Positions 5,502 through 40,149 of a stretch of DNA of 64,000 bases are shown here, in pieces. The DNA comes from Escherichia phage LH01. The DNA lies in the sequence record PP434429. The stretch is one strand, 5' to 3'. Under the pieces are notes generated by a model that saw only the letters and a program-made list of their open reading frames with translations, was not told the origin of the DNA and did no database searches. Each line of letters starts with the position of its first letter. The stretch's first letter is position 1. The translations under genes were made by a program, and so were the position numbers.

Positions 5502-5528
5502 ATTCTATCATCCGAAATCTAAAGCAAA
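5502..5528 (-). promoter_or_regulatory. MotA-box middle promoter candidate upstream of gene 39
   Basis: minus strand reads TTTGCTTTAG, 12 nt, TAGAAT, about 20 nt before the ATG; matches T4 middle promoter architecture. Confidence 0.4.
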
Positions 5529-5542
5529 AAGGGCCGAAGCCC
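5521..5542 (-). terminator. intrinsic terminator, GGGC(UUCG)GCCC hairpin plus U-tract
   Basis: stem-loop immediately after the stop of 5543..5965, followed on the transcript by UUUUUGCUUU. Confidence 0.6.
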
Positions 5543-5965
5543 TTATTTAAATTTAATTTTCTGAAGTGCATCAATTGCAGCCAAACGCCCTTGTTCACTT
5601 TTAACTGTAATGACCACATCGCCTGATACGATCACCGAACCATCAACAAATTCTATAGAGCCTTTTTTGAAATCGACAGCTGTATCTGGTTCCGGAACTT
5701 CTTCAAAGAATTTAAATTCTGCACCATAAAGCAGAATATCACCTTGCATACTAATGATTGTACGTCCAGGTCCATCGGTTTCAGCGGCAATCATTGAAAC
5801 ACCGTAGCCAATCATCTCTTCTACAATAAAATCTCTTGATAATAAAACCGTATGCAGAGTAGTGTTAAGACGTTTACCAGTCGTATTAAGAATTCTCAAG
5901 AAATTATCTTCCTGTCCTTTGATAATACGATATTTCTTACCAACTTCAAAACCTTTAAAAGCCAT
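5543..5965 (-). CDS. hypothetical protein (syntenic with T4 goF/comC-alpha position)
   Basis: 140-aa ORF with ATG start directly upstream of gene 39; no diagnostic motif recognised. Confidence 0.5.
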   Translation of the reverse strand: MAFKGFEVGKKYRIIKGQEDNFLRILNTTGKRLNTTLHTVLLSRDFIVEEMIGYGVSMIAAETDGPGRTIISMQGDILLYGAEFKFFEEVPEPDTAVDFKKGSIEFVDGSVIVSGDVVITVKSEQGRLAAIDALQKIKFK

Positions 5966-5967
5966 AA

Positions 5968-6147
5968 TTAACCCTTCTTAAGTAAGTCGTAAAAACCACC
6001 GTTCACATGTTTAGGAGCAGAAACCCGACGAGTAGACAGACGATGACATTCAGGGCAAACATCGTTTTCTCGTTCAGAAATCCTTTTAATTTTTTCATAT
6101 TCATGACCACAATCTTCAGATTGGCATTTATAGTCGTATAACGGCAT
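5968..6147 (-). CDS. FmdB-type zinc-ribbon small protein
   Basis: 59-aa ORF below the track threshold: MPLYDYKCQSEDCGHEYEKIK...CPECH; two CxxC pairs and the MP-x-Y-x-Y-x-C N-terminus typical of FmdB-family zinc ribbons. Confidence 0.5.
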   Translation of the reverse strand: MPLYDYKCQSEDCGHEYEKIKRISERENDVCPECHRLSTRRVSAPKHVNGGFYDLLKKG

Positions 6148-6149
6148 TA

Positions 6150-6560
6150 TTATTCCTTAAAATGTGCTTTCAACATTTGATACAAAGACCATGCCTGGTC
6201 GTTATTTTCGATAGTAATTGTCATCACCGGAAATTCAGACAATTCGCCAAGTTCACCAGAATCTTGCTCTTCGGACGCTTGATACGGATTTCCCACTTCA
6301 TCAAAAAACTCTGCTTCACTAGTAGAGAGCCAGATAAAGTTTTCATCAAGGATATCACCGCCTGTTGCGTATCCAACCATGCCAGTAGATGTCACAATTT
6401 TAGTAGGACGTCCAAGATGGTCAACATCTAATACTTTAAATGGTTCCATGCCAAGACGTCGTGCATAAATCCCATTATCAGTGTGGTCTTTAATAAACTC
6501 TTCTTGGGCACGTTTATCTTTAAATTGGTACCATGAATTAACGCGGAATTTATTAGCCAT
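6150..6560 (-). CDS. hypothetical protein
   Basis: ORF 6150..6578; ATG for MANKF at 6560 overlaps the stop of the upstream gene (TAATG). Confidence 0.5.
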
Positions 6561-6787
6561 TAGTAAGTTTCCTTCCAATAAGTTGTACCGTTTTCAGTGA
6601 TTTCACGGAAGATACCATAGATAGGCATTTCATCACCGAGTTTTTCGTAAACGTAAACCACTTCGGTGTAGCATAAAAATCCGGTCCAGTTTTTCTGTAC
6701 AACAACTAAATCAGGATTAAACAGAACATCTTCAAACTCATCGATGTTTGAATCAGTAGTTACGTTTTTAATGATTTGACGTTTCAT
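6560..6787 (-). CDS. hypothetical protein
   Basis: internal ATG (MKRQII) at 6787 preceded by AGGAG RBS and an early-type promoter; longer track ORF extends into the promoter. Confidence 0.45.
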
Positions 6788-6815
6788 AATATTCTCCTCT
6801 TGTTTTGATAGGTCT

Positions 6816-6844
6816 ATAGTATCATAGACCATAGTTGTTGTACA
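6816..6844 (-). promoter_or_regulatory. early-type promoter (-35 TGTACA, 17-nt spacer, -10 TACTAT)
   Basis: motif read on the minus strand between the 6845..7369 stop and the 6787 start. Confidence 0.45.
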
Positions 6845-7369
6845 TCATTTTAGCAAAATAAAATCAACTTGTTCTGCCAATGAACGTCTAAACATTAATT
6901 GACAACTTCCGAGGATGAAATCAGGTGCTTCATAGACCGCGATGTAGTATCCTTTAGCTTTCAAGAGTTCAACATCCACTTGGTCATCAAACCATGCATA
7001 AACCGCATCAACACTTTCAAATCCAAAATAGAACCCTTGAGCCCAATCTTCACTCAATTCAAATGTGTGCTCAATTCTATAGTATCTTAAGATATTTTGT
7101 TCAAGGAGTTTGTCTTCATTTACTGTAGGACGATTAGGGACATTATAGTTGTCGCCGTGATGGTAGAAGTTACCTGAGAGTATTCCATGTTTATCAAGGA
7201 ACTCCCATGTTTCTTCAGAGTTGTCGGTGCCTGACCAACCGTACGGCGAGCGAGGTTCTTTATTCCAAGAGGTTTCCCAAATTCTGACGGCTTTACCGTC
7301 TTCGATAGCAATTCCTGGTAATGATTCACGTTGAGTACAAAAACTACGTTCTACGCGGTAAACTAACAT
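6845..7369 (-). CDS. hypothetical protein
   Basis: 174-aa ORF, ATG at 7369 with AGGAG RBS 7 nt upstream. Confidence 0.55.
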   Translation of the reverse strand: MLVYRVERSFCTQRESLPGIAIEDGKAVRIWETSWNKEPRSPYGWSGTDNSEETWEFLDKHGILSGNFYHHGDNYNVPNRPTVNEDKLLEQNILRYYRIEHTFELSEDWAQGFYFGFESVDAVYAWFDDQVDVELLKAKGYYIAVYEAPDFILGSCQLMFRRSLAEQVDFILLK

Positions 7370-7395
7370 ATTATTCTCCTCTGGTTGATATGGTT

Positions 7396-7424
7396 ATAAT
7401 ATCAAAACCGGAGGAGAAGTAAAC
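7396..7424 (-). promoter_or_regulatory. early-type promoter (-35 GTTTAC, -10 TATTAT)
   Basis: GTTTAC, 17 nt, TATTAT on the minus strand about 25 nt upstream of the 7369 ATG. Confidence 0.45.
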
Positions 7425-7428
7425 AACT

Positions 7429-7848
7429 TTATGCGAAAGCAGCTGGGCTATATTTTTTAATTTGGAATTCAGGAACTACCATGAACTGACCAGCGAAAAC
7501 GATGTTATAAAGCTTAACACCATCTTCTACCCAACGGTCGCTAATAAATCCGGCGATTTGCTTAGTTTTCCATGGCGATCCATCAGTTGCCGCAGCAATA
7601 GTGAATTCATGGTCTTTTTCAACAGAAACTGATCTGCATAGTCCCCATTTGAACGCTTTTTCTTCTGGCTCAATGAACTGGCTTGAGACGTAGCCAATAT
7701 TACCATTAGCATCACGAACTTTAACTTGGTTACGACCAAAAACAGGATCACTCACAGAAAGAACTTCAACCAACTTCCCGGCAACTTTAGAGCGAGAAGC
7801 AACAGATACATATACGTAATCACCTGTAGAGAGATTTACAATATTCAT
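7429..7848 (-). CDS. hypothetical protein, member of a tandem paralog family (copy 1)
   Basis: 139-aa ORF; C-terminal motif GFISDRWVEDGVKLYNIVFAGQFMVVPE shared with the next two genes. Confidence 0.6.
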   Translation of the reverse strand: MNIVNLSTGDYVYVSVASRSKVAGKLVEVLSVSDPVFGRNQVKVRDANGNIGYVSSQFIEPEEKAFKWGLCRSVSVEKDHEFTIAAATDGSPWKTKQIAGFISDRWVEDGVKLYNIVFAGQFMVVPEFQIKKYSPAAFA

Positions 7849-7857
7849 AATAATTCC

Positions 7858-8313
7858 TTAAGCTTTACGAGGAGACACATAGCGAGTGATTTCAGATTCT
7901 TCAACAACTCGGAAGTCACCTAAGAATACAATATTGTATAGCTTTTTATCATCTTCAACCCATTGGTCGCTGATGAAGCCGCACATAGTATCAGTTTTGC
8001 TTGGATAACCGTATTCATCGATGAAGTCAAATTCTTTATCAGTCTGGAATTCAACACCTTTACACAAGGCCCATTTGAACTGTACATTAGGTTCAGTAGA
8101 AGCAAAATGAGCGCTCACATGAGTTTCCAAGAATTTAGGACTTACGTAAGCGTACTGAGTTTCAGTTTTTCCAGAACTAGGAATGATTCGAACTTTAACT
8201 TCTTTAACACGACCAGTACCATTAGTACGAAGTCCTACCACTTCAACTAGACGACCTGCAGCTTTAGAACGAGATGCAGACGATACACGCTTAATTTCAC
8301 CAATATTAATCAT
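7858..8313 (-). CDS. hypothetical protein, tandem paralog family (copy 2)
   Basis: start taken at internal ATG (MINIGEIKRV) with AGAG RBS; shares the SASRSKxAG..LVEV N-terminus and GFISDQWVEDDKKLYNIVFLGDF C-terminus with copy 1. Confidence 0.6.
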   Translation of the reverse strand: MINIGEIKRVSSASRSKAAGRLVEVVGLRTNGTGRVKEVKVRIIPSSGKTETQYAYVSPKFLETHVSAHFASTEPNVQFKWALCKGVEFQTDKEFDFIDEYGYPSKTDTMCGFISDQWVEDDKKLYNIVFLGDFRVVEESEITRYVSPRKA

Positions 8314-8343
8314 ATTTTTTCTCTCTTTGTTTAAGTTGAATTC

Positions 8344-8372: not shown

Positions 8373-8375
8373 ACA

Positions 8376-8870: not shown

Positions 8871-8900
8871 AATGTTTTCCTGTTTGGTTAAGATAGAAAG

Positions 8901-12070: not shown

Positions 12071-12145
12071 CTCTTTTTTCATAAAATGCTTTAATTTTTT
12101 ATGTGTTATAATGGTTCTGAGTTCCATCCGGTTATTCCAATCCAG

Positions 12146-14860: not shown

Positions 14861-14922
14861 ATTGTTCTCCTCTTGAGTAAGTAAGAATATCTTAACACAG
14901 TTTTTAGTGGTTGTAAACTGTA

Positions 14923-14952
14923 GAAACAAAAAAAGGAATCCCGAAGGATTCC
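14923..14952 (-). terminator. intrinsic terminator, GGAAUCC(UUCG)GGAUUCC hairpin plus U-tract
   Basis: perfect 7-bp stem with UUCG loop about 10 nt after the soc stop, followed by a U7 run on the transcript. Confidence 0.6.
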
Positions 14953-14961
14953 TTAAATTAT

Positions 14962-15198
14962 TTAACCACTTACTGGTGTAGGGGTAAACATTGCAGCGTT
15001 CTTAGTTTTCCAGTCAGCTGCATCAGAAACTACAGTAGAATAAGCTGCCTTTTCTGATGGAAAGATTTGGTAATGAGAATCTGCAATCCGATGTTCGTTT
15101 GAATAAATCTCAAACGGCACAGAAACTTCCATACCTTTAACTTCTTTACCTTCACCAGCAGGATGCGTAAAGGTTTTGATGTTTACATAACCACCCAT
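14962..15198 (-). CDS. soc: small outer capsid protein Soc
   Basis: 78-aa ORF; GYVNIKTF...HYQIFPSEKAAYSTV matches the Soc family as I recall it; AGGAG RBS; late promoter upstream. Confidence 0.8.
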   Translation of the reverse strand: MGGYVNIKTFTHPAGEGKEVKGMEVSVPFEIYSNEHRIADSHYQIFPSEKAAYSTVVSDAADWKTKNAAMFTPTPVSG

Positions 15199-15200: not shown

Positions 15201-15425
15201 TTAACTCCTTTGTTGTTTAATTACAGGTGTATTTATAATGAATTTCTTCGGGACAATAAAATATCCGAATTTAGCTAATATAACAACACCACCGTTAATT
15301 ATTACCGGAGAATAATCATCTGGAGTATTAAATTTCCAGTGGAGTCTAGTATTATATCCATCAGAGCCGAATGCTTTATTAGCCGGTCTCCCGGCTTTTT
15401 GCCATGCATAAAAATCAAGTTTCAT
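15201..15425 (-). CDS. hypothetical small protein
   Basis: start at internal ATG (MKLDFYAWQ); the longer track ORF 15201..15539 overlaps a coupled small ORF in another frame. Confidence 0.35.
   Translation of the reverse strand: MKLDFYAWQKAGRPANKAFGSDGYNTRLHWKFNTPDDYSPVIINGGVVILAKFGYFIVPKKFIINTPVIKQQRS
15230..15237 (-). promoter_or_regulatory. late promoter TATAAATA upstream of soc
   Basis: exact TATAAATA on the minus strand about 30 nt upstream of the soc ATG. Confidence 0.55.
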
Positions 15426-24039: not shown

Positions 24040-24137
24040 TGTATTTTTCCATAGGCATCATTATATTTTACTCATGTTTAAAAGATAAGACGATTATATA
24101 TTAAGGGTTATACAGCATTTAAAACTTTAAATGGCTC

Positions 24138-24686
24138 TTAACGAGCCCATTTGATGATTTCTGTAATCAAACCATTACGTTCGCTTGCATTAAATCCTAT
24201 AACTTTGTTAGCACCATCATGATTAAGTAATTGATATGTTTGGATTTTGTTATGAATTGCAAACTCTTCAAAATGTGAAATGACTGTATTAAAACCGAAT
24301 GAAGACAAAGTAATAAGGTCGTCTTCAAAACTTTCAGTCATTTCGTTACGTGTTAAAATAATTGTGAACACATCATGGTTTTGGCAAAGACGAACATAGT
24401 CCTGTTCATAAACGTCAAGAACCGAGTCCGCATCTTGTCGAATACGCCCATAAACCCAGTTACTAATATATCCACGGTCTAACAGATAAATCTTAGTAGG
24501 GTCTAAATAATTCAACATCGTTTCGAAACAGCCAACTTCATTTCGAGACTTAACATCGAAACGCCCATCAACTGTTCGTTTAGGGAAATCAATCTTTACA
24601 TATCTTTCACTAATTTCCATTATGTCATTAATGAAAGTTGTTTTACCAGCATTATCTGGGCCGTCTACTAAAATAATTTTAGCCAT
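24138..24686 (-). CDS. P-loop nucleoside-monophosphate kinase, thymidylate-kinase-like
   Basis: 182-aa ORF; Walker A GPDNAGKTT and a DRGYIS segment resembling the TMPK DRY motif; ATG lies 1 nt after the upstream stop. Confidence 0.6.
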   Translation of the reverse strand: MAKIILVDGPDNAGKTTFINDIMEISERYVKIDFPKRTVDGRFDVKSRNEVGCFETMLNYLDPTKIYLLDRGYISNWVYGRIRQDADSVLDVYEQDYVRLCQNHDVFTIILTRNEMTESFEDDLITLSSFGFNTVISHFEEFAIHNKIQTYQLLNHDGANKVIGFNASERNGLITEIIKWAR

Positions 24687-24687: not shown

Positions 24688-25587
24688 TTATTCCTCGATT
24701 ACGACATCTTCGTATTTAGGTATATTATACGGTGAAGAAATTAAAGCATTAAAGTAGATGAACTCACCAAGACCTGGATGGAATACTTCTTCAGGATTTT
24801 CGAAATATTGAATTTTCGGACGTCCTTTAAGAATTTGATAGTACTCAGTTTTAGTTGGTTTAAAAATTCGAATCAGCGCTTCTTCAGGATACTTATTTCT
24901 GTCGAAGCTATTATTTGGATCGGTTATATAAAGCGGTTGACCTAATTGAATTGCACATTCAACCACTTGTTCAAAACGATAACATGGGTCACTAATTCGA
25001 AATGGATGAAAAATACCATCTAGATGAATAGGAGCCAAATCACCTACAAGACGCTGCATGATGGAAGGACGTATAACTTTCTGAGTTACGATAATCTTAT
25101 TACCATCTGCACCGGCGTTAACCAGCACTTCTTTTTGACGTTCATTCAACACAGTAGTTTGAAGTGAACGATTAACCGACAACATATCGGTTTTTAAGAA
25201 TTCGTCAATATAAAAACGTGGTTTATTAGGGTCTGCCGTGATATTGAAATTGAATTCTACATCAAAAGCGCCGTCATATCCAGTGATATCTGTTATTAGA
25301 AAATCACAATCATAATAAGCAATTAATGAATCAACCACAAATTCATTTTCAGACCAGAAATATTTACGAGTGTTATACGCGTTATCTTTATACCATAATG
25401 GAACAAACTTAAATTCTGGGAAAAGACGTTCACATTCTTTAATATCAGATGCATTACGTGGATATGTAATCACATCACCCGGATTAGCACGGTGCAAATG
25501 AAGTTGGAAGTTGCCATCCTTAAGGATAGCATACTGTCCAGTTTCATAAGACCGCATACTCAAGATAGGTACGCGGAAAATAGCCAT
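24688..25587 (-). CDS. hypothetical protein translationally coupled to gene 42 (candidate DNA-modification enzyme)
   Basis: 299-aa ORF whose ATG overlaps the gene 42 stop (TAATG); occupies the locus where T4 has beta-gt; no recognisable motif. Confidence 0.55.
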   Translation of the reverse strand: MAIFRVPILSMRSYETGQYAILKDGNFQLHLHRANPGDVITYPRNASDIKECERLFPEFKFVPLWYKDNAYNTRKYFWSENEFVVDSLIAYYDCDFLITDITGYDGAFDVEFNFNITADPNKPRFYIDEFLKTDMLSVNRSLQTTVLNERQKEVLVNAGADGNKIIVTQKVIRPSIMQRLVGDLAPIHLDGIFHPFRISDPCYRFEQVVECAIQLGQPLYITDPNNSFDRNKYPEEALIRIFKPTKTEYYQILKGRPKIQYFENPEEVFHPGLGEFIYFNALISSPYNIPKYEDVVIEE

Positions 25588-26303
25588 TAGTCAAGGAATC
25601 CTTTAACATAATCAAAATCACGTTCAAACACATGGGCACTTACCATGGTATGAGTATAATCACCAACTTCTACACCACATTCGTTAGCGATATAATGAAG
25701 TAATTTTCCTTGGAGATAAAAATCCAACTGCATAACAACAGCACAGTTCTGAGAACGCATATGACAGTGGGTATAAAGCTTACCATCACGAATATAATAA
25801 GTTACTGAGTCAGTACATGGATATTCAAGTGTTTCGTCCGAATCAAGCAAAGCCTGATCAGAACTTTCTAGAATTTGGAACACAACTCTTCGGGAGTTAG
25901 GCTTCTCTTTAAGTTCTTTTAGAAGAGCTGGTAATTGGGCCGCAATGCGAGGACCATAGAAAGTGTTGAAGTTCGCCGGCAAAACATCTGATTTTGGTTT
26001 AGAAATAAATTTAGCGACATTAGGATATGCCTTAAACGCTTCTTCTGCGTTGGTACCACCAGAAATCATAAACTTCCAGAAGTCTTCGGCATATTCATAA
26101 GAGATGCGGTTAATACGTGGGTCGGTCATTTTGAATGATGATGGAGTGTCAACAACTACTGTCATAGACCCAATTTCATTACAACGTCCAATACGAGAAT
26201 CAGTTACGAATTCGGGGTTTTCTAAAATTTCACGATTGACTGCTTTAAATGCGGTTTGAAAATCTGCGGCTTTGATATATTTCATTGTGTTATGTTTTCC
26301 CAT
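25587..26303 (-). CDS. 42: dCMP hydroxymethylase (thymidylate-synthase fold)
   Basis: 238-aa ORF; TS-like catalytic region EYPCTDS...HMRSQN with Asp where TS has Asn (QLDFY) by my alignment; position between uvsX and 43. Confidence 0.65.
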   Translation of the reverse strand: MGKHNTMKYIKAADFQTAFKAVNREILENPEFVTDSRIGRCNEIGSMTVVVDTPSSFKMTDPRINRISYEYAEDFWKFMISGGTNAEEAFKAYPNVAKFISKPKSDVLPANFNTFYGPRIAAQLPALLKELKEKPNSRRVVFQILESSDQALLDSDETLEYPCTDSVTYYIRDGKLYTHCHMRSQNCAVVMQLDFYLQGKLLHYIANECGVEVGDYTHTMVSAHVFERDFDYVKGFLD

Positions 26304-26345: not shown

Positions 26346-26585
26346 TTATTTGAATTTCTTGGCAATGTTGATATAACGTAAAGCTTCAGAATCTATACTT
26401 CCAAGAACACTATGAAGGAATGCATCAGTGTAGTATTCCAATTGAACAGGTTCTTTAATCACTTTAGCCGCTTTGGTTTCAAACAGGCCCATAAGGGCCT
26501 TTTTAAGAATTTGTTCGTTAGTGTTCAGTTTCATAGTCAAAATCTCTTTGTTAAGTTTATAATTAAAACTTTTTCTAGAAATCAT
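26346..26585 (-). CDS. hypothetical small protein
   Basis: 79-aa ORF from the track. Confidence 0.35.
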   Translation of the reverse strand: MISRKSFNYKLNKEILTMKLNTNEQILKKALMGLFETKAAKVIKEPVQLEYYTDAFLHSVLGSIDSEALRYINIAKKFK

Positions 26586-27751
26586 TCCGGGTACCTCAAA
26601 GCGTCATCAGAGTTAGTTATATCAATAATAGATATGGAGTTTTCTGCTAACCCGTTTTTAGATAATTGACGTTTATAATACCTTTCACAATATGTACACG
26701 TTGACCCACAGATTTCATTAGCACAATCAAAATCTGGATGTCTGAACCACCTTTTTTCTAAAAAGCCATCTAACAAAGAGGTTTCAATATTTACTGTATG
26801 TGAAAACTCAGTCTCATTTTCAAGAGTGAAAATAGTCTCTAAAGGCTTCCACAGTTCTAACAAATTACCTTCAAACTTTTCAGAAGCGTATGCTTCAAGA
26901 ACTTTCAAAATGTAGTCTGTGCTACCTGTACGTCCTGAAACTTTGAATTGAGTGATACCAATATCATTATAAAGTTTCAAATCTTGAGGACGAACAAAAC
27001 GAGTTCTCAACCAGTTAAATGGGTCTGTATCACGAGCTTTAATGCAGTGTTGCATTGGATATCCATTTAAGGATTTAGCATCATCAGCTGTAACATCAGT
27101 ACTATGGAAAATATAGCAAGAGTCACGATAACTGCAATGTGTTGTATACCCTTTACCAGCATTAGAACAGAACTCATTTACAAGAACTTCAAATATTATA
27201 TTGTTCTTATTGCAAAACTCTGCTGCACGCTTCAGGAAAGAAACTGAACGGTTCTTATGAATTCCACAGCAGACCTTTTTGATATTGTATTGGTCATGTA
27301 AGTATTTTATTTGAGTTACAGCATCGACATGTAGAATTGTTGAAACTTCAATCTCAATGTCTTTATTGACTTCACGAACAATTTCCATAACAACAGGGTT
27401 AGCGATAGTAATACGCCATACGCCTATTGACCAAAGATACTGAACATAATCCTGAATAGCTTTCTTCTTCCACTCGACTAGTTCTCTTTTTGAACCAGGA
27501 TTTATCGTGTTGAGTGTATAGTTAAAGCAAATACCTAATTCGTTACAACGTTTAACGTAATCTTCTAACATCTTTTTGTCAACGTCAGGAAGCCTAAAAT
27601 CAGGTCTGGCTGCTACAAAAGCCATTTCTCTTGTAGAGCCGTATACTTCGTTTATCAAGCTGTTAGGATAAGTTTTATTGAGCTCTACGATTTTATCAAG
27701 AAGAGCTAAATCAAAATTCGTTCCGATTTTAAAAGTATTCATTTTTTGCAT
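26582..27751 (-). CDS. Cys-rich protein of unknown function (candidate modification enzyme)
   Basis: 389-aa ORF; C-terminal CGSTCTYC (CxxxCxxC) plus further conserved-looking Cys; no confident family call. Confidence 0.55.
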   Translation of the reverse strand: MQKMNTFKIGTNFDLALLDKIVELNKTYPNSLINEVYGSTREMAFVAARPDFRLPDVDKKMLEDYVKRCNELGICFNYTLNTINPGSKRELVEWKKKAIQDYVQYLWSIGVWRITIANPVVMEIVREVNKDIEIEVSTILHVDAVTQIKYLHDQYNIKKVCCGIHKNRSVSFLKRAAEFCNKNNIIFEVLVNEFCSNAGKGYTTHCSYRDSCYIFHSTDVTADDAKSLNGYPMQHCIKARDTDPFNWLRTRFVRPQDLKLYNDIGITQFKVSGRTGSTDYILKVLEAYASEKFEGNLLELWKPLETIFTLENETEFSHTVNIETSLLDGFLEKRWFRHPDFDCANEICGSTCTYCERYYKRQLSKNGLAENSISIIDITNSDDALRYPE

Positions 27752-27797
27752 CTCGCGTTAATTGATGCGATGGTTTTTGCAGGTCTTACTTAAATTA

Positions 27798-28184
27798 TTA
27801 TAGATTCGGTTTATATGATTTAAATGTTTCGAATTCGCCTTTATTCATAAGAGCTTTGAATTCGTCAGGACGCATAGCTTTGTCGTCGATAATCCAATCA
27901 TATACTGGTTTATGTGTTAGCAAATTATGGTACTTCAAGCCAATGTTTGCCAAGTTCTGAATCAGACTTGGGAGAATGTCAATTGCTATACGACCAGGAC
28001 CTACTGACTTCATACCACGAGCAGTGTAAAGCGTTATGGTATGCCCTGCATCATACAGGGCATTAATGGCAGACACCATTTCGACGTCTGGTTTGAAGTT
28101 CACGTAATCACGATTGTTATTCCACTCTGTTATACAATCATCGACATCAAAACAAAGATTAAGCATGTTTTCTACACGGTGCAT
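27798..28184 (-). CDS. HAD-superfamily phosphatase (small, KdsC-like size)
   Basis: start at ATG for MHRVENMLNLCFDVDDCIT (HAD motif I DxDx[T/C]); later LYTARG and DWIIDDKA motifs; ATG overlaps the upstream stop. Confidence 0.6.
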   Translation of the reverse strand: MHRVENMLNLCFDVDDCITEWNNNRDYVNFKPDVEMVSAINALYDAGHTITLYTARGMKSVGPGRIAIDILPSLIQNLANIGLKYHNLLTHKPVYDWIIDDKAMRPDEFKALMNKGEFETFKSYKPNL

Positions 28185-29869
28185 TAGATTCGTTCCCATT
28201 GATGAGTGATATCGCCACCGATTGGACGATAGGAAACACCAGTTTCTTTATCAGTTAGTACCCATTTACCAGGATTTTTTGTAATCAGAGTAGCCGTTAC
28301 AGGTTCTGCTACGTCATAACTAATAGAGCCGTCTTGAAGTACACGGCCCATGTTGCGTAATTGCTTAGTCAGAAGTTCCATACCTTTATAATATGCGGCT
28401 ACCGCTTTAAGTGGATTATTCTTGAAATAACCACCTAATGCAATCCAGATAATTGCCACCGCCAAATGATGATACTCGTTAAACGAACTCATCTTTCCAT
28501 ATTTGTAAATTAATGGATTGATGTTAATAGTCACATTACAAGTTGTTTCATCAATAGTAAACTGTCCCCAGGTCGGATTAGCATTGAATTCATCATAACC
28601 TGAAACGGCATAAAGCACTTTAGCTTCATCATACAATTTTGGCCCGTAAATCTTGGTTTCGCCAAAATATCCACGAGGGTCGATAAACTTGACTTCGCCG
28701 TTATCAGTAATCATAGTATTACTGAAGTTCGGGTCACCATGAATAACAGAGTACTGTCCCTGAGAACGATTATGATAACGAATAAGGTGTTCTAAAGCTT
28801 GTTTCAGCATTGGCTTCAGACGTCCAATCTTAGTGTAGTTCACATGTGTGATTTTACCAAATGAATCAATCAATGGTTGAATACTTTCACAACGATCAAT
28901 AACTTTCGTATAGAATTCTTTAGTGAAATCACGACGAACAGTTTCAGGACTTACAAAATACGTGTCTGTGCTGAATTTCAGTGCATCTAAAATTGCATCA
29001 ACAATTTGTGGACGAGCAAGACTTGATTTGGATTTAATATATTCAAATGCCGGCTTACCTTTAATGCGTTCCATTTCAAAGTTATTTTCATTAACAGAAA
29101 CTAACTGAGGAACTGAATCTGATTTCACTTTCAAATACCACGAAATCTCATCTTTCTGAAGAGCTCGTCCCTGTTCGGTTAATGCGAATTTAGTTACAGT
29201 TTCTTCACCAATTTCAACTGCATTAAAACTACGATTAAGTTCACGAACTTCATGAGCTTTTTCAAGTTTAGGCATATCACCTAAATCAATTAGATTCATA
29301 AGCTCTGATTTATTGAATGCGCCGCTGTAAAGGAATTCTACGAAATCACGTCCTTTGCAGTATTCATGAATTTCCTCATCGGTAGAACCCATATAGAATT
29401 CCCAGTCTTTGAACTGATAAATTCCTACAACATTACCACCTGTTGAACCTACGTTAGTGATATTTTCACCGTCGAAATTATACCGACATTCGTCACCCTT
29501 AACATAGATTGCGTTAACATTCCAAGACCATGAACCAAAATCAGGAATAATATCACACCAGTTAACAATTACATTATGGCCATCTAAATCTTTGTGTAAT
29601 TTAGCAAGAGCATAAGCAGAACCATACGCTTCATCAACTGTACGAATAGTCACATTGAACCCTTCTTGCTCACAATAAGCTCGAACAGTTTCAGCAAATT
29701 TTGAATGAACTACTACAATAATTTCATCTGCGCCAAGGTCAGAATAAATTGTATACAAATTGCTCAGAATAGTGTCTTGTTTATAGTTAACAAGCACCTT
29801 AGGAATATGATGCGTTATTGGATACAAACGAGTTGCCAGTCCAGCACCAAGAATAACAGCTTTTTTCAT
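28184..29869 (-). CDS. bifunctional sugar-1-phosphate nucleotidyltransferase / sugar kinase (APH-ChoK-like)
   Basis: 561-aa ORF; N-terminus ILGAGLATRLYPIT...PKVLV (NTP-transferase signature); C-terminus VIHGDPNFSNTMI...FIDPRGYFG (Brenner HGD-N and DFG-like motifs of APH/choline-kinase fold). Confidence 0.75.
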   Translation of the reverse strand: MKKAVILGAGLATRLYPITHHIPKVLVNYKQDTILSNLYTIYSDLGADEIIVVVHSKFAETVRAYCEQEGFNVTIRTVDEAYGSAYALAKLHKDLDGHNVIVNWCDIIPDFGSWSWNVNAIYVKGDECRYNFDGENITNVGSTGGNVVGIYQFKDWEFYMGSTDEEIHEYCKGRDFVEFLYSGAFNKSELMNLIDLGDMPKLEKAHEVRELNRSFNAVEIGEETVTKFALTEQGRALQKDEISWYLKVKSDSVPQLVSVNENNFEMERIKGKPAFEYIKSKSSLARPQIVDAILDALKFSTDTYFVSPETVRRDFTKEFYTKVIDRCESIQPLIDSFGKITHVNYTKIGRLKPMLKQALEHLIRYHNRSQGQYSVIHGDPNFSNTMITDNGEVKFIDPRGYFGETKIYGPKLYDEAKVLYAVSGYDEFNANPTWGQFTIDETTCNVTININPLIYKYGKMSSFNEYHHLAVAIIWIALGGYFKNNPLKAVAAYYKGMELLTKQLRNMGRVLQDGSISYDVAEPVTATLITKNPGKWVLTDKETGVSYRPIGGDITHQWERI

Positions 29870-29910
29870 GTTGTGGTCCTCATTGGTAAGTAGGAGTATT
29901 GTACACTATT

Positions 29911-30054
29911 CTAGTTAAAGCATTCATACTTTGCTTGTAGTCCAATCATAGTCCATCCGATTATAAGAGTCGGAATCATTACTGGAGCCGTTAAGCTCCA
30001 GTAGATAGTCATGACAAGCATCAATAGTAAAAGTCCTATTGTTATTGCTTTCAT
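29911..30054 (-). CDS. small membrane protein
   Basis: 47-aa ORF below the track threshold (MKAITIGLLLLMLVMTIYW...); ATG overlaps the SIS gene stop (ATGA). Confidence 0.35.
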   Translation of the reverse strand: MKAITIGLLLLMLVMTIYWSLTAPVMIPTLIIGWTMIGLQAKYECFN

Positions 30055-30686
30055 TGCTCGCCTCGTAACATGGCACCTAGTGCACCGCCTGGATGGAACT
30101 TAAGGAAATCATTAGAGGTAAATCCACGTTCAGACGAAAGGTTGATAGCAAAAGTATCGATAAGCGCTAACAATAATGTAGTGGACATAGTCGGAGCCAG
30201 AGAATTCTCATCAACCTCTACTGCGATGCCTGTACAGAACGTATAATCAAAAAGAGCTTCGTATTCTTGTGGAATGTCTGGGTTACAATGCAACAGAATC
30301 TGTTTGACGTTCGGACGAATCATTTTAAGATGCTTAGCCACGCCTATCATTTCTTCAGTTTTACCAGAACGACTAATATGAATCAACACATCATTAGGCG
30401 CAATGAATCCTGCATCACCGTGAGAATAATGCCCAGTGTTCAAGTACATACTCGGGATACCGAGTGAAGCAAATGTCTCAGAAGCTTTAGTTGCAATATT
30501 AGCATTCTTACCAACACCTGTAATAATTACTCGGCTTTCATAATTACTAAGTCCAGGGCGTCGAAGAGTTTCTAGAATAGCATTATAACGAGCAGGGTTT
30601 TGACTAATTACTTTGGCCATAGCGGCCAAAGAAGAAGCTTGTTTTATGATTGCGTCAATAGCGATATTAATAGGAGTAGTTTTCAT
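30051..30686 (-). CDS. SIS-domain sugar-phosphate isomerase, KdsD/GutQ-type (single domain)
   Basis: 211-aa ORF; ITGVGKNANIATKA...HGDAG...ISRSGKTEE...APTMSTT...HPGGALG matches the arabinose-5-phosphate isomerase SIS pattern; no CBS domains. Confidence 0.75.
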   Translation of the reverse strand: MKTTPINIAIDAIIKQASSLAAMAKVISQNPARYNAILETLRRPGLSNYESRVIITGVGKNANIATKASETFASLGIPSMYLNTGHYSHGDAGFIAPNDVLIHISRSGKTEEMIGVAKHLKMIRPNVKQILLHCNPDIPQEYEALFDYTFCTGIAVEVDENSLAPTMSTTLLLALIDTFAINLSSERGFTSNDFLKFHPGGALGAMLRGEQ

Positions 30687-33485: not shown

Positions 33486-33515
33486 ATTATACTCCAAATG
33501 GGACCGAAGTCCCAT
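33486..33515 (-). promoter_or_regulatory. -10 TATAAT element preceded by C(UUCG)G hairpin upstream of gene 43
   Basis: ATGGGAC(UUCG)GUCCCAT hairpin immediately upstream of TATAAT, about 48 nt before ATG 33438. Confidence 0.35.
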
Positions 33516-33519
33516 TGCT

Positions 33520-33888
33520 TTAATTACCAATTGTATATTTTGCTTTCAAAGTCCAGTCATCTTTCTGTTTAAAAGAGATAACACGGAAGTTATTAGTCAG
33601 GCTAAATAGATCTTCACGAGCAGAGTCTTCAATAATAATTAACCCCCAGTCTTCAAGCAACTGAGCAATCGAATCACGTCGCTGATAGTCTTCACCGTCG
33701 ATATCAACCTGACGTCCGTCCATACGCAGCATTTCTTTAAAGTGGACGATGTAATATTTACCTTGCTTTTGGAGGATATGACAAGACTGGTAAAGGACTT
33801 TATCCTTGTTATTAGCGATGCCCATACGGGTCAAAGTCTCTTTGACTTTCAGAAAATCTTCAGGGTTCTTCAATTTAATTTCAATCAT
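33520..33888 (-). CDS. regA: RegA translational repressor
   Basis: start at ATG for MIEIKLKNPEDFLKVKETLTRMGIANNKDKVLYQSCHILQK...; strongly conserved RegA sequence and position after 62. Confidence 0.85.
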   Translation of the reverse strand: MIEIKLKNPEDFLKVKETLTRMGIANNKDKVLYQSCHILQKQGKYYIVHFKEMLRMDGRQVDIDGEDYQRRDSIAQLLEDWGLIIIEDSAREDLFSLTNNFRVISFKQKDDWTLKAKYTIGN

Positions 33889-36852: not shown

Positions 36853-36894
36853 TTAATTTGATGTGGTCATTATAACCACATCGTGTTAAAGCGT

Positions 36895-38583
36895 TTATGA
36901 AACAGTCATCACAGTAAATCGTCCAACTTTGCTCATTTGAAGATGTTGTCCATAAGCTTGTGGGTCATGGTCTCTGTGACTAATTATAAACACGTTTGCA
37001 TCGGTTAGAGAGTTAAGAATTGTTGAAATAGCTTTAATACCTTCAGAATCAGTCGCGGAATCCATGACTTCGTCCATAATTAATGTATTGATTCTAACAC
37101 CAGAGACCTTTTCAGCAATATCTCGCCATGTAAACAACAATGCGATATCGATACGTGCCTTTTCACCTTGACTAAATGAAGCATAACTGAACTCTTCACG
37201 GCCACGTGATTTTATAGATTCATTGAATTCTTCATCAATAGAAAACACGTAATCAGCTTCCATGATTTTAAGGTAATGGTTAATCTGCTTGTTGAACAGA
37301 GGCACATATTTTTTAATGATAGCACCTTTAATACCAGAATCTTTTAACATATCTGTTATAATACCACGATGGTATTTTTCAAGAACGATATCCGATTTTG
37401 TTTTAATGATTTTATCAAGTTCTTTTTGAAGCAAAGCTATCTCATCGGCATGGTCGATAAATTCCGCCGAGGCTTGTTCTATTGCAGCTTTAACTTTCTT
37501 AGCTTTATCAATAGTGGCAATCATTGCTTGTTTCTTGGTACGAATATCAGATGCAAGGTCCTGTTTAGTCTTAACATTAGCTCTATATTCGTCCACTAGG
37601 ACACTCAGATTATCTCTGTGACAGGTAAGTTGCTCGAATGAGTGATTACATTCATGAAGCTTATCGGTAATCTTAGAGACAATAGGGTCACCCTGGTGCA
37701 ACTGTGATGCGCAAGTAGGACATGTACCGCCATCATGATACATCTTAATAACTTTGTTATATGAGTCGATTTTAGATTTAATCAAGAATGCTTCTTGTCC
37801 GATCTTGTTGAATGCCTCAGTAGGGTCTTCGTCAAGAACGATATTAAGTAGACGCTCATTAGCTTCTTCAATTTCTGCTTTTAATGAACGAGCTTCTTTG
37901 GCTAGGTCGTCATACATATTCTGTAGACGTGCTACATTATCGCCAGATAATTTCTTTTGGCGTTCGATATTCTCGTTATAAATCTTAATTTGTTGGATAA
38001 TACCATCTTTCTTGGCATCGAGAACTTGCCCCTGGGAATTAAGTTCTCGAACTTGAGACTTATTGATTTTATCCATTTCAGCGAGTGTGCCGACTTCTAA
38101 AAGGTCTTCGACAAGTTTTCTACGAGCAGGGGTGCTAAGAGCCATGAAAGGGGTATACCCTGCCGTCCCAAGCACAACGATCTGTTTAAAAGACGCGTAT
38201 GACATTCCGATGCTACGTTCAAATTCTTCTTGGAAGTCACGACTGCTGGCAGATTCATCAAGACGAACACCGTCAACGGAGATTTCGAAAATATTGGGCT
38301 TTTGGCCACGTTTAATGAAGTATTTTTTATCATCGAATTCCATCCAAAGCTCAACTAAGAGCTCTTTCTTGTTCGTGCTATTAATGATTTGTCCTTTCTT
38401 AACATCACGAAATGGTTTACCGAAAAGTCCGAAAGTAATGGCTTCTAACATCGTAGATTTACCACCACCATTTTTACCAGTGATTAATGTCTTTTGGACT
38501 TTATCTAATTGGATATCAATAGGATTCCCACCTACCGACATGATGTTTTGATAACGAACACGATTTAATTTAAATGATTTCAT
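36895..38583 (-). CDS. 46: recombination endonuclease subunit (Rad50/SbcC-like ATPase)
   Basis: 562-aa ORF; Walker A GKNGGGKST, central coiled coil with CPTC zinc hook, C-terminal ABC signature/D-loop region. Confidence 0.85.
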   Translation of the reverse strand: MKSFKLNRVRYQNIMSVGGNPIDIQLDKVQKTLITGKNGGGKSTMLEAITFGLFGKPFRDVKKGQIINSTNKKELLVELWMEFDDKKYFIKRGQKPNIFEISVDGVRLDESASSRDFQEEFERSIGMSYASFKQIVVLGTAGYTPFMALSTPARRKLVEDLLEVGTLAEMDKINKSQVRELNSQGQVLDAKKDGIIQQIKIYNENIERQKKLSGDNVARLQNMYDDLAKEARSLKAEIEEANERLLNIVLDEDPTEAFNKIGQEAFLIKSKIDSYNKVIKMYHDGGTCPTCASQLHQGDPIVSKITDKLHECNHSFEQLTCHRDNLSVLVDEYRANVKTKQDLASDIRTKKQAMIATIDKAKKVKAAIEQASAEFIDHADEIALLQKELDKIIKTKSDIVLEKYHRGIITDMLKDSGIKGAIIKKYVPLFNKQINHYLKIMEADYVFSIDEEFNESIKSRGREEFSYASFSQGEKARIDIALLFTWRDIAEKVSGVRINTLIMDEVMDSATDSEGIKAISTILNSLTDANVFIISHRDHDPQAYGQHLQMSKVGRFTVMTVS

Positions 38584-38828
38584 ATGTATTCTCTTCGAAT
38601 GAAGTCCTCTACATATTTTAACATGTCATCCCTATCAGCAAAATATTCATCTAGTTCTGCATACATAACAACACCCGGTGCGTACTCACAGGTAACATAC
38701 ATTGTTCCAAAGAAACGAGGAGTTGTCTCCTCGTAATTCTCAGTCCATTCAACGATACCAATATAACCGTCACCAATACTAAATTCATGACGATGGATTT
38801 CATAATCAGTCTTCGTCATTATACGCAT
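38580..38828 (-). CDS. hypothetical small protein (46.1 position)
   Basis: 82-aa ORF; start overlaps the upstream gene. Confidence 0.4.
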   Translation of the reverse strand: MRIMTKTDYEIHRHEFSIGDGYIGIVEWTENYEETTPRFFGTMYVTCEYAPGVVMYAELDEYFADRDDMLKYVEDFIRREYI

Positions 38829-39063
38829 CCTTGATACATGCTTCAGCCATTTTAAGAATAGAGCCAGGAGTATCGTTGTCCATTATATTAAAGCTAAATT
38901 CAATAGCCCAGTCGGTGTAGACATGAACTGCTTTAACTTCATTGCCTTCAACGCGTAATGGCTCAATCCAATACTTGATAGTGTTCTCGAATCCATCATC
39001 ATCTTTAACGTCCATTTCAACTTCAAGCCCGAGCCCAGCATTATTAAATTCATCTAAAGTCAT
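38806..39063 (-). CDS. hypothetical small protein (46.2 position)
   Basis: 85-aa ORF from the track. Confidence 0.4.
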   Translation of the reverse strand: MTLDEFNNAGLGLEVEMDVKDDDGFENTIKYWIEPLRVEGNEVKAVHVYTDWAIEFSFNIMDNDTPGSILKMAEACIKDAYNDED

Positions 39064-40079
39064 TGTGTTGCCTCAATATAAAGTTCGTTGGAATATTTGA
39101 CCAGCGCTTCTCTGTCTTCGTCTGAGATATCTGGAATCGCGTCAATATATTCTTTAATGATATCTTGAAGTGATTTAATCTCGATTTCCTGGTCGTCATC
39201 AGATTCAACACTGTTATCAACTTTAGAAACCATACGAAGAGAGTGAACTACTTTTTCAAGTTCAGATTCAAACTTAGTCAACTCTGAATCAATTTCTGAT
39301 ACTATAACACGTACGGCTAGATTGGTATAATCAGAATAATTGATTTTGCCTTTAAACGGATAAGTGATTCGTCGATGCCATGTTGTTTCATTAGGAATAA
39401 ATTCCATACGTTCAACATCAGTGTCAAATACCCAGAACCCGCGCGGGTCGTTCTCATCACCTGCAGTAAGGGTCCATGGTGTCCCAATATATTTGACGTT
39501 AGCAGCTTCAGAGATTGTGTGGAAGTGGCCAGACCAGACTTGTTTATAAGTCTTTAAGAAATCAGGTTCAAGCCCATGAGACTTCATCCCTTTATAGAAA
39601 TAAAAGCCGTTCAGTTCCCAGTGCCCAACACAATACGCAGCAGAAGAAGTCTTGATGTGCTCTAAGATTTCACCTGTATTTTCTTCACACATCCATGGAA
39701 CGATATCAATCAGACATCCGTCAAAATCTACAGTAGTTGGATGTTCGTAAATAGTAAAGTTTTCAAATTGAGTTAACAATTCAGAAACAGTGTTAGGTGT
39801 TATTGTATTCTTAAACGCCATGTCATGGTTTCCTATCGTGACATGAACGTGAATGCCTGCTTTAGAAATCATATCAACTATTTCACGATTGAATTCCATT
39901 GTACGATGTGTTATTGCTTTACGGACGTCGAACCAATCACCGTACTGAATCCAAGTTTTAATCCCGTGTTTCTTAGAGTATTCAATTGCTTGACGAATAC
40001 CATCGCGTTGAATATCTTGAACCCATGGGTCGTCTTGTTTGACTCCGATATGGAAGTCGCCTAAGTGCAAAATTTTCAT
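39060..40079 (-). CDS. 47: recombination nuclease subunit (Mre11/SbcD-like phosphoesterase)
   Basis: 339-aa ORF; N-terminal MKILHLGDFHIG, later GNHD and GHWE/GHFH metallophosphatase motifs. Confidence 0.85.
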   Translation of the reverse strand: MKILHLGDFHIGVKQDDPWVQDIQRDGIRQAIEYSKKHGIKTWIQYGDWFDVRKAITHRTMEFNREIVDMISKAGIHVHVTIGNHDMAFKNTITPNTVSELLTQFENFTIYEHPTTVDFDGCLIDIVPWMCEENTGEILEHIKTSSAAYCVGHWELNGFYFYKGMKSHGLEPDFLKTYKQVWSGHFHTISEAANVKYIGTPWTLTAGDENDPRGFWVFDTDVERMEFIPNETTWHRRITYPFKGKINYSDYTNLAVRVIVSEIDSELTKFESELEKVVHSLRMVSKVDNSVESDDDQEIEIKSLQDIIKEYIDAIPDISDEDREALVKYSNELYIEATQ

Positions 40080-40102
40080 ATTATTTCCTCATTAGTTAAT
40101 TC

Positions 40103-40126
40103 ATTCTATCATCCGTTTATAAAGCA
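40103..40126 (-). promoter_or_regulatory. MotA-box middle promoter candidate upstream of gene 47
   Basis: TTTTGCTTTAT, 11 nt, TAGAAT about 25 nt upstream of ATG 40079; shares GGATGATAGAAT with the gene 39 promoter. Confidence 0.45.
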
Positions 40127-40149
40127 AAAAAGGAACTCCGAAGAGTTCC
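40121..40149 (-). terminator. intrinsic terminator, GGAACUC(UUCG)GAGUUCC hairpin plus U-tract
   Basis: perfect 7-bp stem, UUCG loop, followed on the transcript by UUUUUUGCUUU. Confidence 0.55.

Follow-up and report, generated by a model that had tools for sequence, protein, structure and literature searches.

Upstream of genes 39 and 47 of Escherichia phage LH01 (PP434429), the T-run following an intergenic hairpin merges into a sequence resembling the Mot box of T4 middle promoters. This raises the question of whether the overlap links the ending of early transcription to the start of middle transcription, as a preliminary description proposed, or whether it merely accompanies a compact arrangement of two known types of element. 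We address this for the 64,000-nt stretch of the genome analysed here (the window) and its counterparts in related phages. The elements reported at 5502-5542 and 40103-40149, a terminator U-tract running into TGCTTTA, are present and lie on the minus strand, which had been left unstated; TAGAAT follows TGCTTTA at the spacing of 11-12 nt given earlier, with 12 nt at site 1 (upstream of gene 39) and 11 nt at site 2 (upstream of gene 47).

Organization of the two intergenic cassettes

The two sites are organized alike (Table 1) and occupy intergenic spacers of 63 nt at site 1 and 69 nt at site 2. The 5' arm of the hairpin overlaps the stop codon of the upstream gene in each case, the TAA of the RB69 ORF005c homologue at site 1 and the TAG of the a-gt.2 homologue at site 2, and the ATG codons of genes 39 and 47 lie 22-23 nt past TAGAAT. 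The unit downstream of site 2 (36895-40090, minus strand) contains genes 47, 46.2, 46.1 and 46 (36895-38583).

Table 1. Coordinates of the gene 39 and gene 47 cassettes and of related elements in the window.
Feature	Position	Strand	Remarks
Site 1, upstream stop codon TAA	5545-5543	minus	ORF 5543-5965, RB69 ORF005c homologue
Site 1, UUCG-loop hairpin AAGGGC-TTCG-GCCCTT	5544-5529	minus	RB69 counterpart called by TransTerm
Site 1, segment TTTTTGCTTTA	5520-5530	minus	common to site 2
Site 1, T-run	5530-5526	minus	encodes the U-tract; A/T-rich 5' part of the Mot box
Site 1, Mot box core TGCTTTA	5526-5520	minus	Mot sub-score 11.0 bits
Site 1, extended -10 (TG-a-TAGAAT)	TG 5510-5509, TAGAAT 5507-5502	minus	
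Site 1, predicted transcription start	near 5495	minus	from T4 spacing
Gene 39 Shine-Dalgarno GAGGAG	5490-5485	minus	
Gene 39	3662-5490 including Shine-Dalgarno, ATG at 5479	minus	605 aa; unsplit topoisomerase II large subunit
Further UUCG hairpin 3' of gene 39	3663-3646	minus	
Site 2, upstream stop codon TAG	40151-40149	minus	a-gt.2 homologue 40149-40322
Site 2, hairpin AGGAACTC-TTCG-GAGTTCCT	40150-40131	minus	RB69 counterpart called by TransTerm
Site 2, segment TTTTTGCTTTA	40120-40130	minus	common to site 1
Site 2, T-run	40130-40126	minus	
Site 2, Mot box core TGCTTTA	40126-40120	minus	Mot sub-score 11.0 bits
Site 2, extended -10 (TG-a-TAGAAT)	TG 40111-40110, TAGAAT 40108-40103	minus	
Site 2, predicted transcription start	near 40096	minus	
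Gene 47 Shine-Dalgarno GAGG	40090-40087	minus	
Gene 47 (nuclease gene)	39060-40079, ATG at 40079	minus	
regA-43 hairpin	33516-33497	minus	ends 5 nt before TATAAT 33491-33486; T4 P43 mapped
uvsX-type middle promoter AAATGCTGTA-12-TATAAT	24093-24147	minus	hairpin 24147-24133, 12 nt upstream
11-bp hairpin + TTTTCGTT	45417-45486	minus	15 nt upstream of Mot-type promoter GTTTGCATAA-13-TATAAT

The window derives from an RB69-like Mosigvirus, an isolate other than RB69 itself, and both sites have positional orthologues in T4, site 1 corresponding to P39 and site 2 to P47/PmobB. In T4, P39, P47 and PmobB (P-alpha-gt.1) are mapped MotA-dependent middle promoters (Guild et al. 1988; Hsu & Karam 1990, in Hinton 2010, PMC2988021) with start sites at 5349, 36576 and 38682, respectively, 6-7 nt past the -10 box (PMC2988021). 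They precede the same genes and share the order of stop codon, UUCG hairpin, T-run, GCTTTA, 11-12 nt and -10 box. T4 P39 reads AAAGGCC-TTCG-GGCCTTT-AGCTTTA-12-TATAAT, its start at 5349 lying 7 nt after TATAAT, and the left flank and TGCTTTATAAA are common to window site 2 and PmobB. The T4 sequences differ in having A for T before GCTTTA (TTTAGCTTTA) and in their -10 boxes, which are TATAAT or TAAAAT rather than the TAGAAT of the window. T4 also has two cassettes around mobB and a-gt, together with the small ORF 47.1, whereas the window lacks both of these and has a single cassette.

The relationship with RB69 is closer, in that site 1 is identical and site 2 is one base off, in the -10 box. 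Additional files 4 and 6 of Nolan et al. 2006 (PMC1524935) give Pm:5538 and Pm:40046 as predicted middle promoters and place TransTerm terminators at 5535-5546 and 40044-40061, such that terminator and promoter coordinates overlap by 3-4 nt at both sites; the portions of that paper covered here contain no discussion of the overlap. Early promoters are predicted upstream (Pe:6863, and Pe:42515 to Pe:43945) in the same source. Counting from the published coordinates, approximately 11 of the 24 minus-strand terminators of RB69 have a predicted promoter within 25 nt downstream. The terminator and middle-promoter elements at genes 39 and 47 are thus already known, mapped in T4 and predicted in RB69, which the preliminary description missed, and because both sites match them the finding is real but ordinary.

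Units of a stem-loop and a Mot box have been named PmSL (Comeau et al. 2014, PMC4122927), and PeSL and PmSL are established concepts, with PeSL terminator and promoter activities both having been tested (PMC2839356; PMC4122927). Both window sites fit the definition, with an intergenic stem-loop and promoter placed between a stop codon and the Shine-Dalgarno sequence and ATG of the next gene. The parts come in the same order (upstream stop codon, stem-loop, promoter, Shine-Dalgarno, downstream ATG), the stem-loop and promoter adjoin or overlap, and the PmSL variant likewise has a TGCTT Mot box and a -10 box. The description of PmSLs comes from vibriophage nt-1, and that of PeSLs concerns mainly hyperplastic regions beside ORFans (Arbiol et al. 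2010, PMC2839356; PMC4122927), whereas the two cassettes here lie ahead of conserved core genes for replication and recombination.

The gene 39 cassette is kept in Tequatrovirus, Mosigvirus, Dhakavirus and Winklervirus. Its 13 sequence variants, which include those of T4, RB69, JS98 (Dhakavirus) and CHI14 (Winklervirus), have five different stems with compensatory changes, as read from each hairpin detected singly (a MAFFT alignment puts the longer stems out of register), and at least five different genes precede it. We note that the two window cassettes have an 11-mer and a 13-mer in common, and that the genes adjoining the gene 39 cassette upstream differ.

Predicted middle promoters and their regulators

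The proposal that these are MotA-type middle promoters holds up well. Using a scoring matrix built from 52 mapped T4 middle promoters, sites 1 and 2 score 20.9 and 19.5 bits, and both are within the top six of 31 minus-strand matches; the plus strand has six matches, and shuffled sequences 4.2. The Mot box TTTTGCTTTA at both sites fits the T4 consensus (a/t)(a/t)(a/t)TGCTTtA, centred near -30, and TAGAAT conforms to TAnnnT at 12 +/- 1 bp from the Mot box, with a TG at -15/-14. Neither site is among the matches listed in a scan for sigma70 -35/-10 promoters, and at site 1 the hexamer lying 17 nt upstream, TTTTTG, by reading agrees with TTGACA at two of six positions.

The arrangement is also enriched over chance. 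There are 10 matches to TGCTTTA-N11-13-TAnnnT in the window compared to 0.86 expected, and the complete arrangement of hairpin, T-run, GCT[T/G]T, 10-14 nt and TAnnnT is seen three times against an expected 0.26 +/- 0.51, a number reached in none of 200 dinucleotide shuffles. The segment TTTTTGCTTTA has two exact copies in the window, both at these sites (0.21 expected; 3 of 100 shuffles reach two).

The second sequence reported as common to both sites, GGATGATAGAAT, likewise has two exact copies, but the true common run is 13 nt, CGGATGATAGAAT, and the RB69 P47 -10 box is TAAAAT, so that the 12-mer is not kept in RB69. Its TG-n-TA..AT portion is an ordinary extended -10 consensus. We did not retain GGATGATAGAAT as a special motif, as it is absent as such in RB69 and consists largely of that consensus.

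The TG at -15/-14 and the good -10 box at both sites would equally suit plain TG-extended -10 sigma70 promoters that operate without MotA, with GCTTTA being incidental. The same TG is present in 24 of the 52 aligned T4 middle promoters, and an extended -10 box of this kind could allow some activity without MotA. As a full account, however, it is very improbable: GCTTT is unchanged in all 12 of the gene 39 variants that were aligned, whereas the spacer beside it varies, and the T4 counterparts are tabulated as middle promoters dependent on MotA (PMC2988021). Moreover, RB43, which lacks motA (Nolan et al. 2006, PMC1524935), keeps the hairpin, T-tract and -10 box at gene 39 and has lost GCTT at the same place.

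The genes for MotA and AsiA would lie beyond the 64-kb window, and both are present in RB69, motA at 162001-162633 and asiA at 159866-160138, and in close relatives of the window. A MotA of at least 95% identity is encoded in 153 phage records, one of them that of pEK20, a relative matching the window at 99.3% identity over site 1. Judged by proxy from RB69 and these close relatives, LH01 probably encodes both proteins, and MotA-dependent initiation at the two predicted starts would be expected.

Hairpins and termination

At both sites a co-oriented gene is followed directly by a stable GC-rich hairpin, with a U-rich tract, UUUUUGCUUUA (five T plus GCTTT), immediately 3' of the stem, as is typical of intrinsic terminators. 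Hairpins with C(UUCG)G tetraloops reportedly serve as intrinsic terminators in T4 intercistronic regions, and the window hairpins resemble these in their GC-rich stem, UUCG loop, U-rich tail and position directly after a stop codon. They differ in that the U-tract of these predicted terminators is broken by GC after five U, because the tract runs into the Mot box.

Terminator strength was judged by hairpin energies and relative T-tail scores. The site 1 hairpin has a short stem of four G-C and two A-U pairs, and folds with -9.3 kcal/mol for the centroid and -9.4 kcal/mol for the minimum free energy structure (z -1.24); the site 2 hairpin is at -13.9 kcal/mol (z -3.25). The T-tail score is about 4.3 at both sites. 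The T4 orthologues score approximately 2.9, and the A before GCTTTA gives T4 the poorer U-tract. Termination at both window sites may be weak or partial, as the U-tracts of the T4 orthologues are poor.

An alternative scenario is that the hairpins contribute little to termination in vivo and act mainly as stabilisers of 3' ends or barriers to processing, as boundaries of recombining cassettes, or as both, with mostly read-through into genes 39 and 47. The short stems and interrupted U-tracts are in accord with this, as are the 30-50% of transcripts terminated by the T4 mobE hairpin with its short poly(U) (Gibb and Edgell 2009) and the known transcription of middle genes by read-through as well. 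A role as cassette boundary would also suit a cassette that stays with gene 39 while the upstream gene varies, and the two cassettes flanking mobB and a-gt in T4 versus one in the window. Nonetheless, the RB69 counterparts of both hairpins are called as terminators by TransTerm with a score of 100 (Nolan et al. 2006, PMC1524935), although these are themselves predictions; the T-runs are on a par with the one at 14954, a strong terminator (4.55); and in a reporter, a PeSL stem-loop of like style was as efficient a terminator as rrnB T1 (PMC2839356; PMC4122927). We therefore regard this scenario as rather unlikely, and the hairpins as probable terminators, in agreement with the preliminary description.

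Overlap of hairpin and Mot box

The most probable scenario, to which we assign a probability of about 0.75, is that each site is a compact PmSL-type cassette in which a UUCG terminator-type hairpin is abutted by a MotA/AsiA-dependent middle promoter, with the sharing of the T-run as a by-product. The hairpin at site 1 would close the upstream early unit cef-goF-39.2-ORF005c, and that at site 2 the early unit extending through 55 and a-gt.5 to a-gt.2. In the RNA, the hairpin and UUUUUGCUU (5530-5522 and 40130-40122) would terminate or attenuate RNA polymerase coming from early promoters upstream, and would probably stabilise the 3' ends of the early transcripts. On the DNA, the same T-run would make up the A/T-rich 5' part of the Mot box, where AsiA-remodelled sigma70 holoenzyme would be positioned with MotA on TTTTGCTTTA and region 2 on TG-n-TAGAAT. 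The start would lie roughly 7 nt past the -10 box, and transcription would proceed into gene 39, or into genes 47-46.2-46.1-46.

That the T-run is shared is explained most simply by the shortness of the spacers together with the range of sequences that the Mot box tolerates; it is a by-product and not a coupling device. With spacers of just 63 and 69 nt, and approximately 66-77 nt needed for hairpin, promoter and leader together, hairpin and Mot box have to overlap. Furthermore, MotA reads -33 and -32 through the minor groove (Hinton 2010, PMC2988021), such that A and T are interchangeable there, and the first three positions of the Mot box have A and T about equally often in the 52 aligned T4 middle promoters.

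The coupling put forward earlier would require the overlap to be a selected switch linking the delayed-early read-through and middle promoter-initiated modes. MotA/AsiA-RNA polymerase bound to the U-tract DNA might alter early termination by roadblock or anti-termination, or termination exactly at the Mot box might be needed to keep the promoter clear of occluding polymerases. The hairpin does abut the Mot box (0-6 nt) in 12 of the 13 gene 39 variants, representing four genera, a like design is seen at P47 and PmobB, and delayed-early RNA upstream of gene 32 is missing in a motA- infection (Hinton 2010, PMC2988021). That the two elements abut in four genera could be due to selection for the overlap as such, or equally to shared inheritance. 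However, the hairpin and promoter are 12 nt apart in one relative (L042), the promoter is kept without a hairpin in others (L050-52 and L055/56/60), the U-tract is weak at the same promoters in T4 (TTTAGCTTTA), and 55 of 58 mapped T4 middle promoters have no abutting hairpin; the 63-69 nt spacers compel an overlap in any event. A selected switch is thus improbable, and we consider it just as improbable that occupancy of the Mot box changes termination efficiency, or the reverse, with the shift between read-through and middle modes set at one 11-nt element in several Tevenvirinae genera. The terminator and middle-promoter anatomy of the preliminary description therefore stands, while its coupling is not supported.

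The compact-cassette reading is of value mainly for annotation, in that the control regions of genes 39 and 47 in this Mosigvirus follow the T4 model, with UUCG hairpins closing early units and MotA-dependent promoters opening replication and recombination units. It is mildly useful that the gene 39 hairpin-Mot box junction is kept with compensatory stems in at least four genera. With a motA-less relative that keeps the hairpin and -10 box without GCTT, the junction provides a clean natural test bed for effects of the overlap.

Among the other candidates in the window, a plus-strand composite at 33497-33539 was rejected as an antisense promoter, being the mirror image of the regA stop codon and the regA-43 hairpin, and a hairpin beside a Mot-like match (28063-28009), which falls within coding sequence and has a poor -10 (TATGAA), was put down to chance. 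On the minus strand, the regA-43 hairpin ends so close to TATAAT that the stem-loop fills the position of a Mot box. The hairpin and uvsX-type promoter are paralleled in RB69 by a terminator at 24042-24056 and Pm:24034 (Nolan et al. 2006, PMC1524935), and the Mot-type promoter within 45417-45486 is the orthologue of T4 P55.8.

Anatomy and identity of the two elements

Site 1, the predicted terminator/middle-promoter element 5' of gene 39, and site 2, its counterpart 5' of gene 47, lie on the minus strand, as do all of the genes in their part of the window. Both had been located and read correctly in the preliminary description, as confirmed by re-reading the window sequence and folding the hairpins (-9.3 kcal/mol, centroid, for site 1 and -13.9 kcal/mol for site 2). 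The spacers are 63 nt and 69 nt long respectively, with the stop codons inside the stems. Many Escherichia and Shigella phages of the RB69 group (genus Mosigvirus) match both regions at 99% identity, and from rIIA onward the window runs colinearly with RB69, so that the downstream genes are gene 39 and gene 47, the latter followed by 46.2, 46.1 and 46. Gene 39 (3662-5479) is unsplit and encodes 605 aa, whereas T4 has a 39/60 pair.

Features of site 1, site 2 and the corresponding T4 elements
Feature	Coordinates	Strand	Sequence or remark
Site 1, full (5' to 3')		-	TAAATAAGGGCTTCGGCCCTTTTTGCTTTAGATTTCGGATGATAGAATACCTTCATAACGAGGAGACAACATG
Site 1 upstream stop	5545-5543	-	TAA; end of ORF 5543-5965
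Site 1 hairpin	5544-5529	-	AAGGGC-TTCG-GCCCTT
Site 1 T-run	5530-5526	-	continuous with TGCTTTA, 5526-5520
Site 1 TG-a-TAGAAT	5510-5502	-	12 nt past TGCTTTA
Gene 39 start	5479	-	ATG
Site 2, full		-	GGATAGGAACTCTTCGGAGTTCCTTTTTTGCTTTATAAACGGATGATAGAATGAATTAACTAATGAGGAAATAATATG
Site 2 upstream stop	40151-40149	-	TAG
Site 2 hairpin	40150-40131	-
Site 2 T-run	40130-40126	-	TGCTTTA, 40126-40120
Site 2 TG-a-TAGAAT	40111-40103	-	11-nt spacer from TGCTTTA
Gene 47 start	40079	-	ATG
T4, 5' of gene 39			TAAAAGGCCTTCGGGCCTTTAGCTTTATGATTACCGGAGTATAAT
T4, 5' of 47.1/47			TAAAGGGCTTCGGCCCTTTAGCTTTATACGGAGTTTGATATAAT
T4 PmobB (third example)	start 38682		ATAGGAGCTTCGGCTCCTATATTGCTTTATAAATTTTTTGGTAAAAT; just past a-gt.2

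Among the RB69 predictions of Nolan et al. (2006, PMC1524935) are middle promoters Pm:5538 (5498-5538) and Pm:40046 (40007-40046) and TransTerm terminators at 5535-5546 ('60plus39<--ORF005c') and 40044-40061 ('47<--a-gt.2'). RB69 site 1 is identical in sequence to that of the window, and the sole difference at site 2 is the -10 box, TAAAAT in RB69. The same set places early promoters 5' of site 1 (Pe:6863) and 5' of site 2 (Pe:42515, 42816, 43242 and 43945), and the early units that these predict would finish at the two hairpins. That source also reports motA and asiA in RB69 (162001-162633 and 159866-160138 in the RB69 record), and 153 phage records carry a MotA at least 95% identical, one of them from a relative that shares 99.3% identity with the window across site 1.

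The layout at the gene 39 and gene 47 loci is the same in T4, where transcription starts at 5349 (P39) and 36576 (P47) (Table 1 of the Hinton 2010 review, PMC2988021), exactly 7 nt past the -10 boxes of the tabulated sequences. The T4 PmobB element has its left flank and TGCTTTATAAA in common with site 2. RB69-type phages are without mobB and a-gt, and a-gt.2 is therefore followed directly by gene 47. T4 has two hairpin and Mot-box (MotA-binding element) cassettes, PmobB (38688-38734) and P47 (36583-36626), flanking mobB and a-gt, whereas the window (40103-40150) and RB69 have one between a-gt.2 and gene 47 and lack mobB, a-gt and 47.1; as a sequence comparison, this contrast would fit cassette-mediated insertion or deletion.

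The string TTTTTGCTTTA occurs twice in the window, at site 1 and site 2 only (0.21 expected), and TGCTTTA-N11-13-TAnnnT has 10 matches against 0.86 expected. The full composite, defined as hairpin, T-run, GCT[T/G]T, 10-14 nt and TAnnnT, is present three times, compared with 0.26 +/- 0.51 in 200 dinucleotide shuffles. Scanning with a weight matrix derived from 52 of the 58 T4 middle promoters that have been mapped yields 31 minus-strand and 6 plus-strand matches scoring 12 bits or more (shuffles, 4.2 +/- 2.2), with site 1 at 20.9 bits and site 2 at 19.5 bits. There are four hairpins in the window, and three in T4, whose 3' end comes within 6 nt of a Mot 10-mer, the background being about 1 per 20 nt.

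Conservation among T4-like relatives

The gene 39 cassette is found in 13 distinct sequence variants at loci encoding gp39 relatives, each with a hairpin, T-run, GCTTT(A/T), about 12 nt and a -10 box. JS98 (Dhakavirus; TAAGGGCTTCGGCCCTTTTATGCTTTA...) and Serratia phage CHI14 (Winklervirus; TAAGGGCTTCGGCCCTTTTTGCTTTTT...) are confirmed by name as carrying it 5' of gene 39. GCTTT is invariant among the variants, and the stems show compensatory changes (GGGC/GCCC, GGCC/GGCC, GGAGC/GCTCC, GGAGCC/GGCTCC and AGAGCC/GGCTCT). At least five different upstream genes adjoin the cassette, which argues that it belongs with gene 39. The hairpin-promoter arrangement is not obligatory: in contig L042 12 nt separate the two, and in more distant relatives, with gp39 identity of 67-69%, the Mot promoter persists and no hairpin is present. 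In some of these relatives (contigs L050-L052) the upstream TAA stop lies within the A/T-rich flank of the Mot box.

RB43 presents a different picture 5' of gene 39 (2010-2055, minus strand), with a hairpin (ACCCC-GAAA-GGGGT), TTTCTTTTTC and then TATATAAT; hairpin, T-tract and -10 box are retained, and the GCTT core is absent from this segment. RB43 lacks motA (Nolan et al. 2006, PMC1524935). This suggests that the terminator-promoter junction predates the Mot box or does not depend on it.

The gene 47 cassette is less widely conserved than that of gene 39. In contig L011 (1400-1500) the final part of the upstream gene contains the Mot promoter, with the hairpin in the gene 47 5' leader, and in L012 (697-742) a cassette lies about 760 nt 5' of gene 47. 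Contigs L042 and L049 have, just 3' of gene 39 (about 3230-3290), a 10-bp hairpin, TTTTT, GCTTTA, 12 nt and TATATT.

Juxtaposition and the question of coupling

At the RNA level the hairpin and UUUUUGCUU would end or attenuate early transcripts, and at the DNA level the T-run would supply the three A/T positions of the Mot box and the T preceding GCTT. In T4 promoters A and T are about equally frequent at these three positions, and MotA reads -33 and -32 via the minor groove (Hinton 2010, PMC2988021), which accounts for T4 being able to carry A where the window phage has T; the U-tract of the T4 orthologues is much poorer than that of the window.

The preliminary description had proposed that a U-tract doubling as a MotA box couples early termination to middle transcription. 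The middle-promoter reading stands, resting on orthology, in position and in sequence, to MotA-dependent T4 promoters that were mapped experimentally, and the predicted terminators are probably real, but the coupling is unsupported, and no evidence for it was found in the window sequence, in T4 and the relatives compared, or in the literature consulted. The requirements are 16-20 nt for a hairpin, about 35 nt for a promoter (Mot box to start) and 15-22 nt for a leader including the Shine-Dalgarno sequence, and spacers of 63 and 69 nt cannot hold all three without overlap. In T4, termination at a comparable hairpin followed by a short poly(U) reaches only 30-50%, with a downstream middle promoter compensating (Gibb and Edgell 2009), and middle genes are expressed both by read-through and from promoters of their own (Hinton 2010, PMC2988021). 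None of these, nor the weak T4 U-tract, calls for coupling, and simple juxtaposition of terminator and promoter is the best-supported reading.

The elements are already known: they have been mapped in T4, RB69 predictions place them at the same coordinates, and the composite has a name in the literature. PeSL cassettes are intergenic, with an upstream stop codon, stem-loop, early promoter and downstream Shine-Dalgarno sequence and ATG; in some subclasses the stem-loop and the -35 or -10 box overlap, and reporter assays demonstrated terminator as well as promoter activity (Arbiol et al. 2010, PMC2839356). PmSL, with a stem-loop, TGCTT Mot box and -10 box, extends this class (Comeau et al. 2014, PMC4122927). 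By our count from the published RB69 coordinates, about 11 of 24 minus-strand terminators have a predicted promoter no more than 25 nt downstream (8 early, 3 middle), and both sites therefore exemplify, with a middle promoter, a general rule of organisation. The window has a PeSL-type cassette downstream of soc (14889-14954, minus strand), with a strong terminator (AAGGAATCC-TTCG-GGATTCCTT and 7 T), 10 nt and an early-type TTTACA-17-TAAGAT; at the matching position the RB69 predictions include a terminator (14953-14970) and Pe:14950 (Nolan et al. 2006, PMC1524935).

Other elements in the window

The best Mot-type match of the whole window (23.6 bits; AAATGCTTTA-13-TATAAT with TG) is at 12084-12112 on the plus strand, within the srd-modA spacer and antisense to every gene there; 'Pm:12081 +' is also among the RB69 entries (Nolan et al. 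2006, PMC1524935). At the regA-43 junction (33486-33516, minus strand) a hairpin, AATGGGAC-TTCG-GTCCCATT, ends 5 nt before TATAAT, so that the Mot-box position falls on its 5' arm and loop and reads GACTTCG, with an ACTT core as in T4 P46; T4 P43, a mapped middle promoter, has the same layout. A chance-looking plus-strand composite at 33497-33539, considered as an antisense promoter, was rejected as the mirror image of the regA stop codon and this hairpin. In the long gene 56-soc spacer, where T4 has the homing endonuclease gene segF, a hairpin (AGCCGG-GAGA-CCGGCT; 15351-15396, minus strand) directly adjoins TAAAGCATTC, a weak Mot-like box with TATAAT 12 nt further on. Between a dCMP hydroxymethylase-like gene (25587-26303) and gene 43 is a block of sugar-nucleotide genes (26582-30686), homologues of RB69 ORF050-055 that include arabinose-5-phosphate isomerase-like and guanylyltransferase-like genes, and whose predicted products would fit a DNA sugar modification unlike that of T4.
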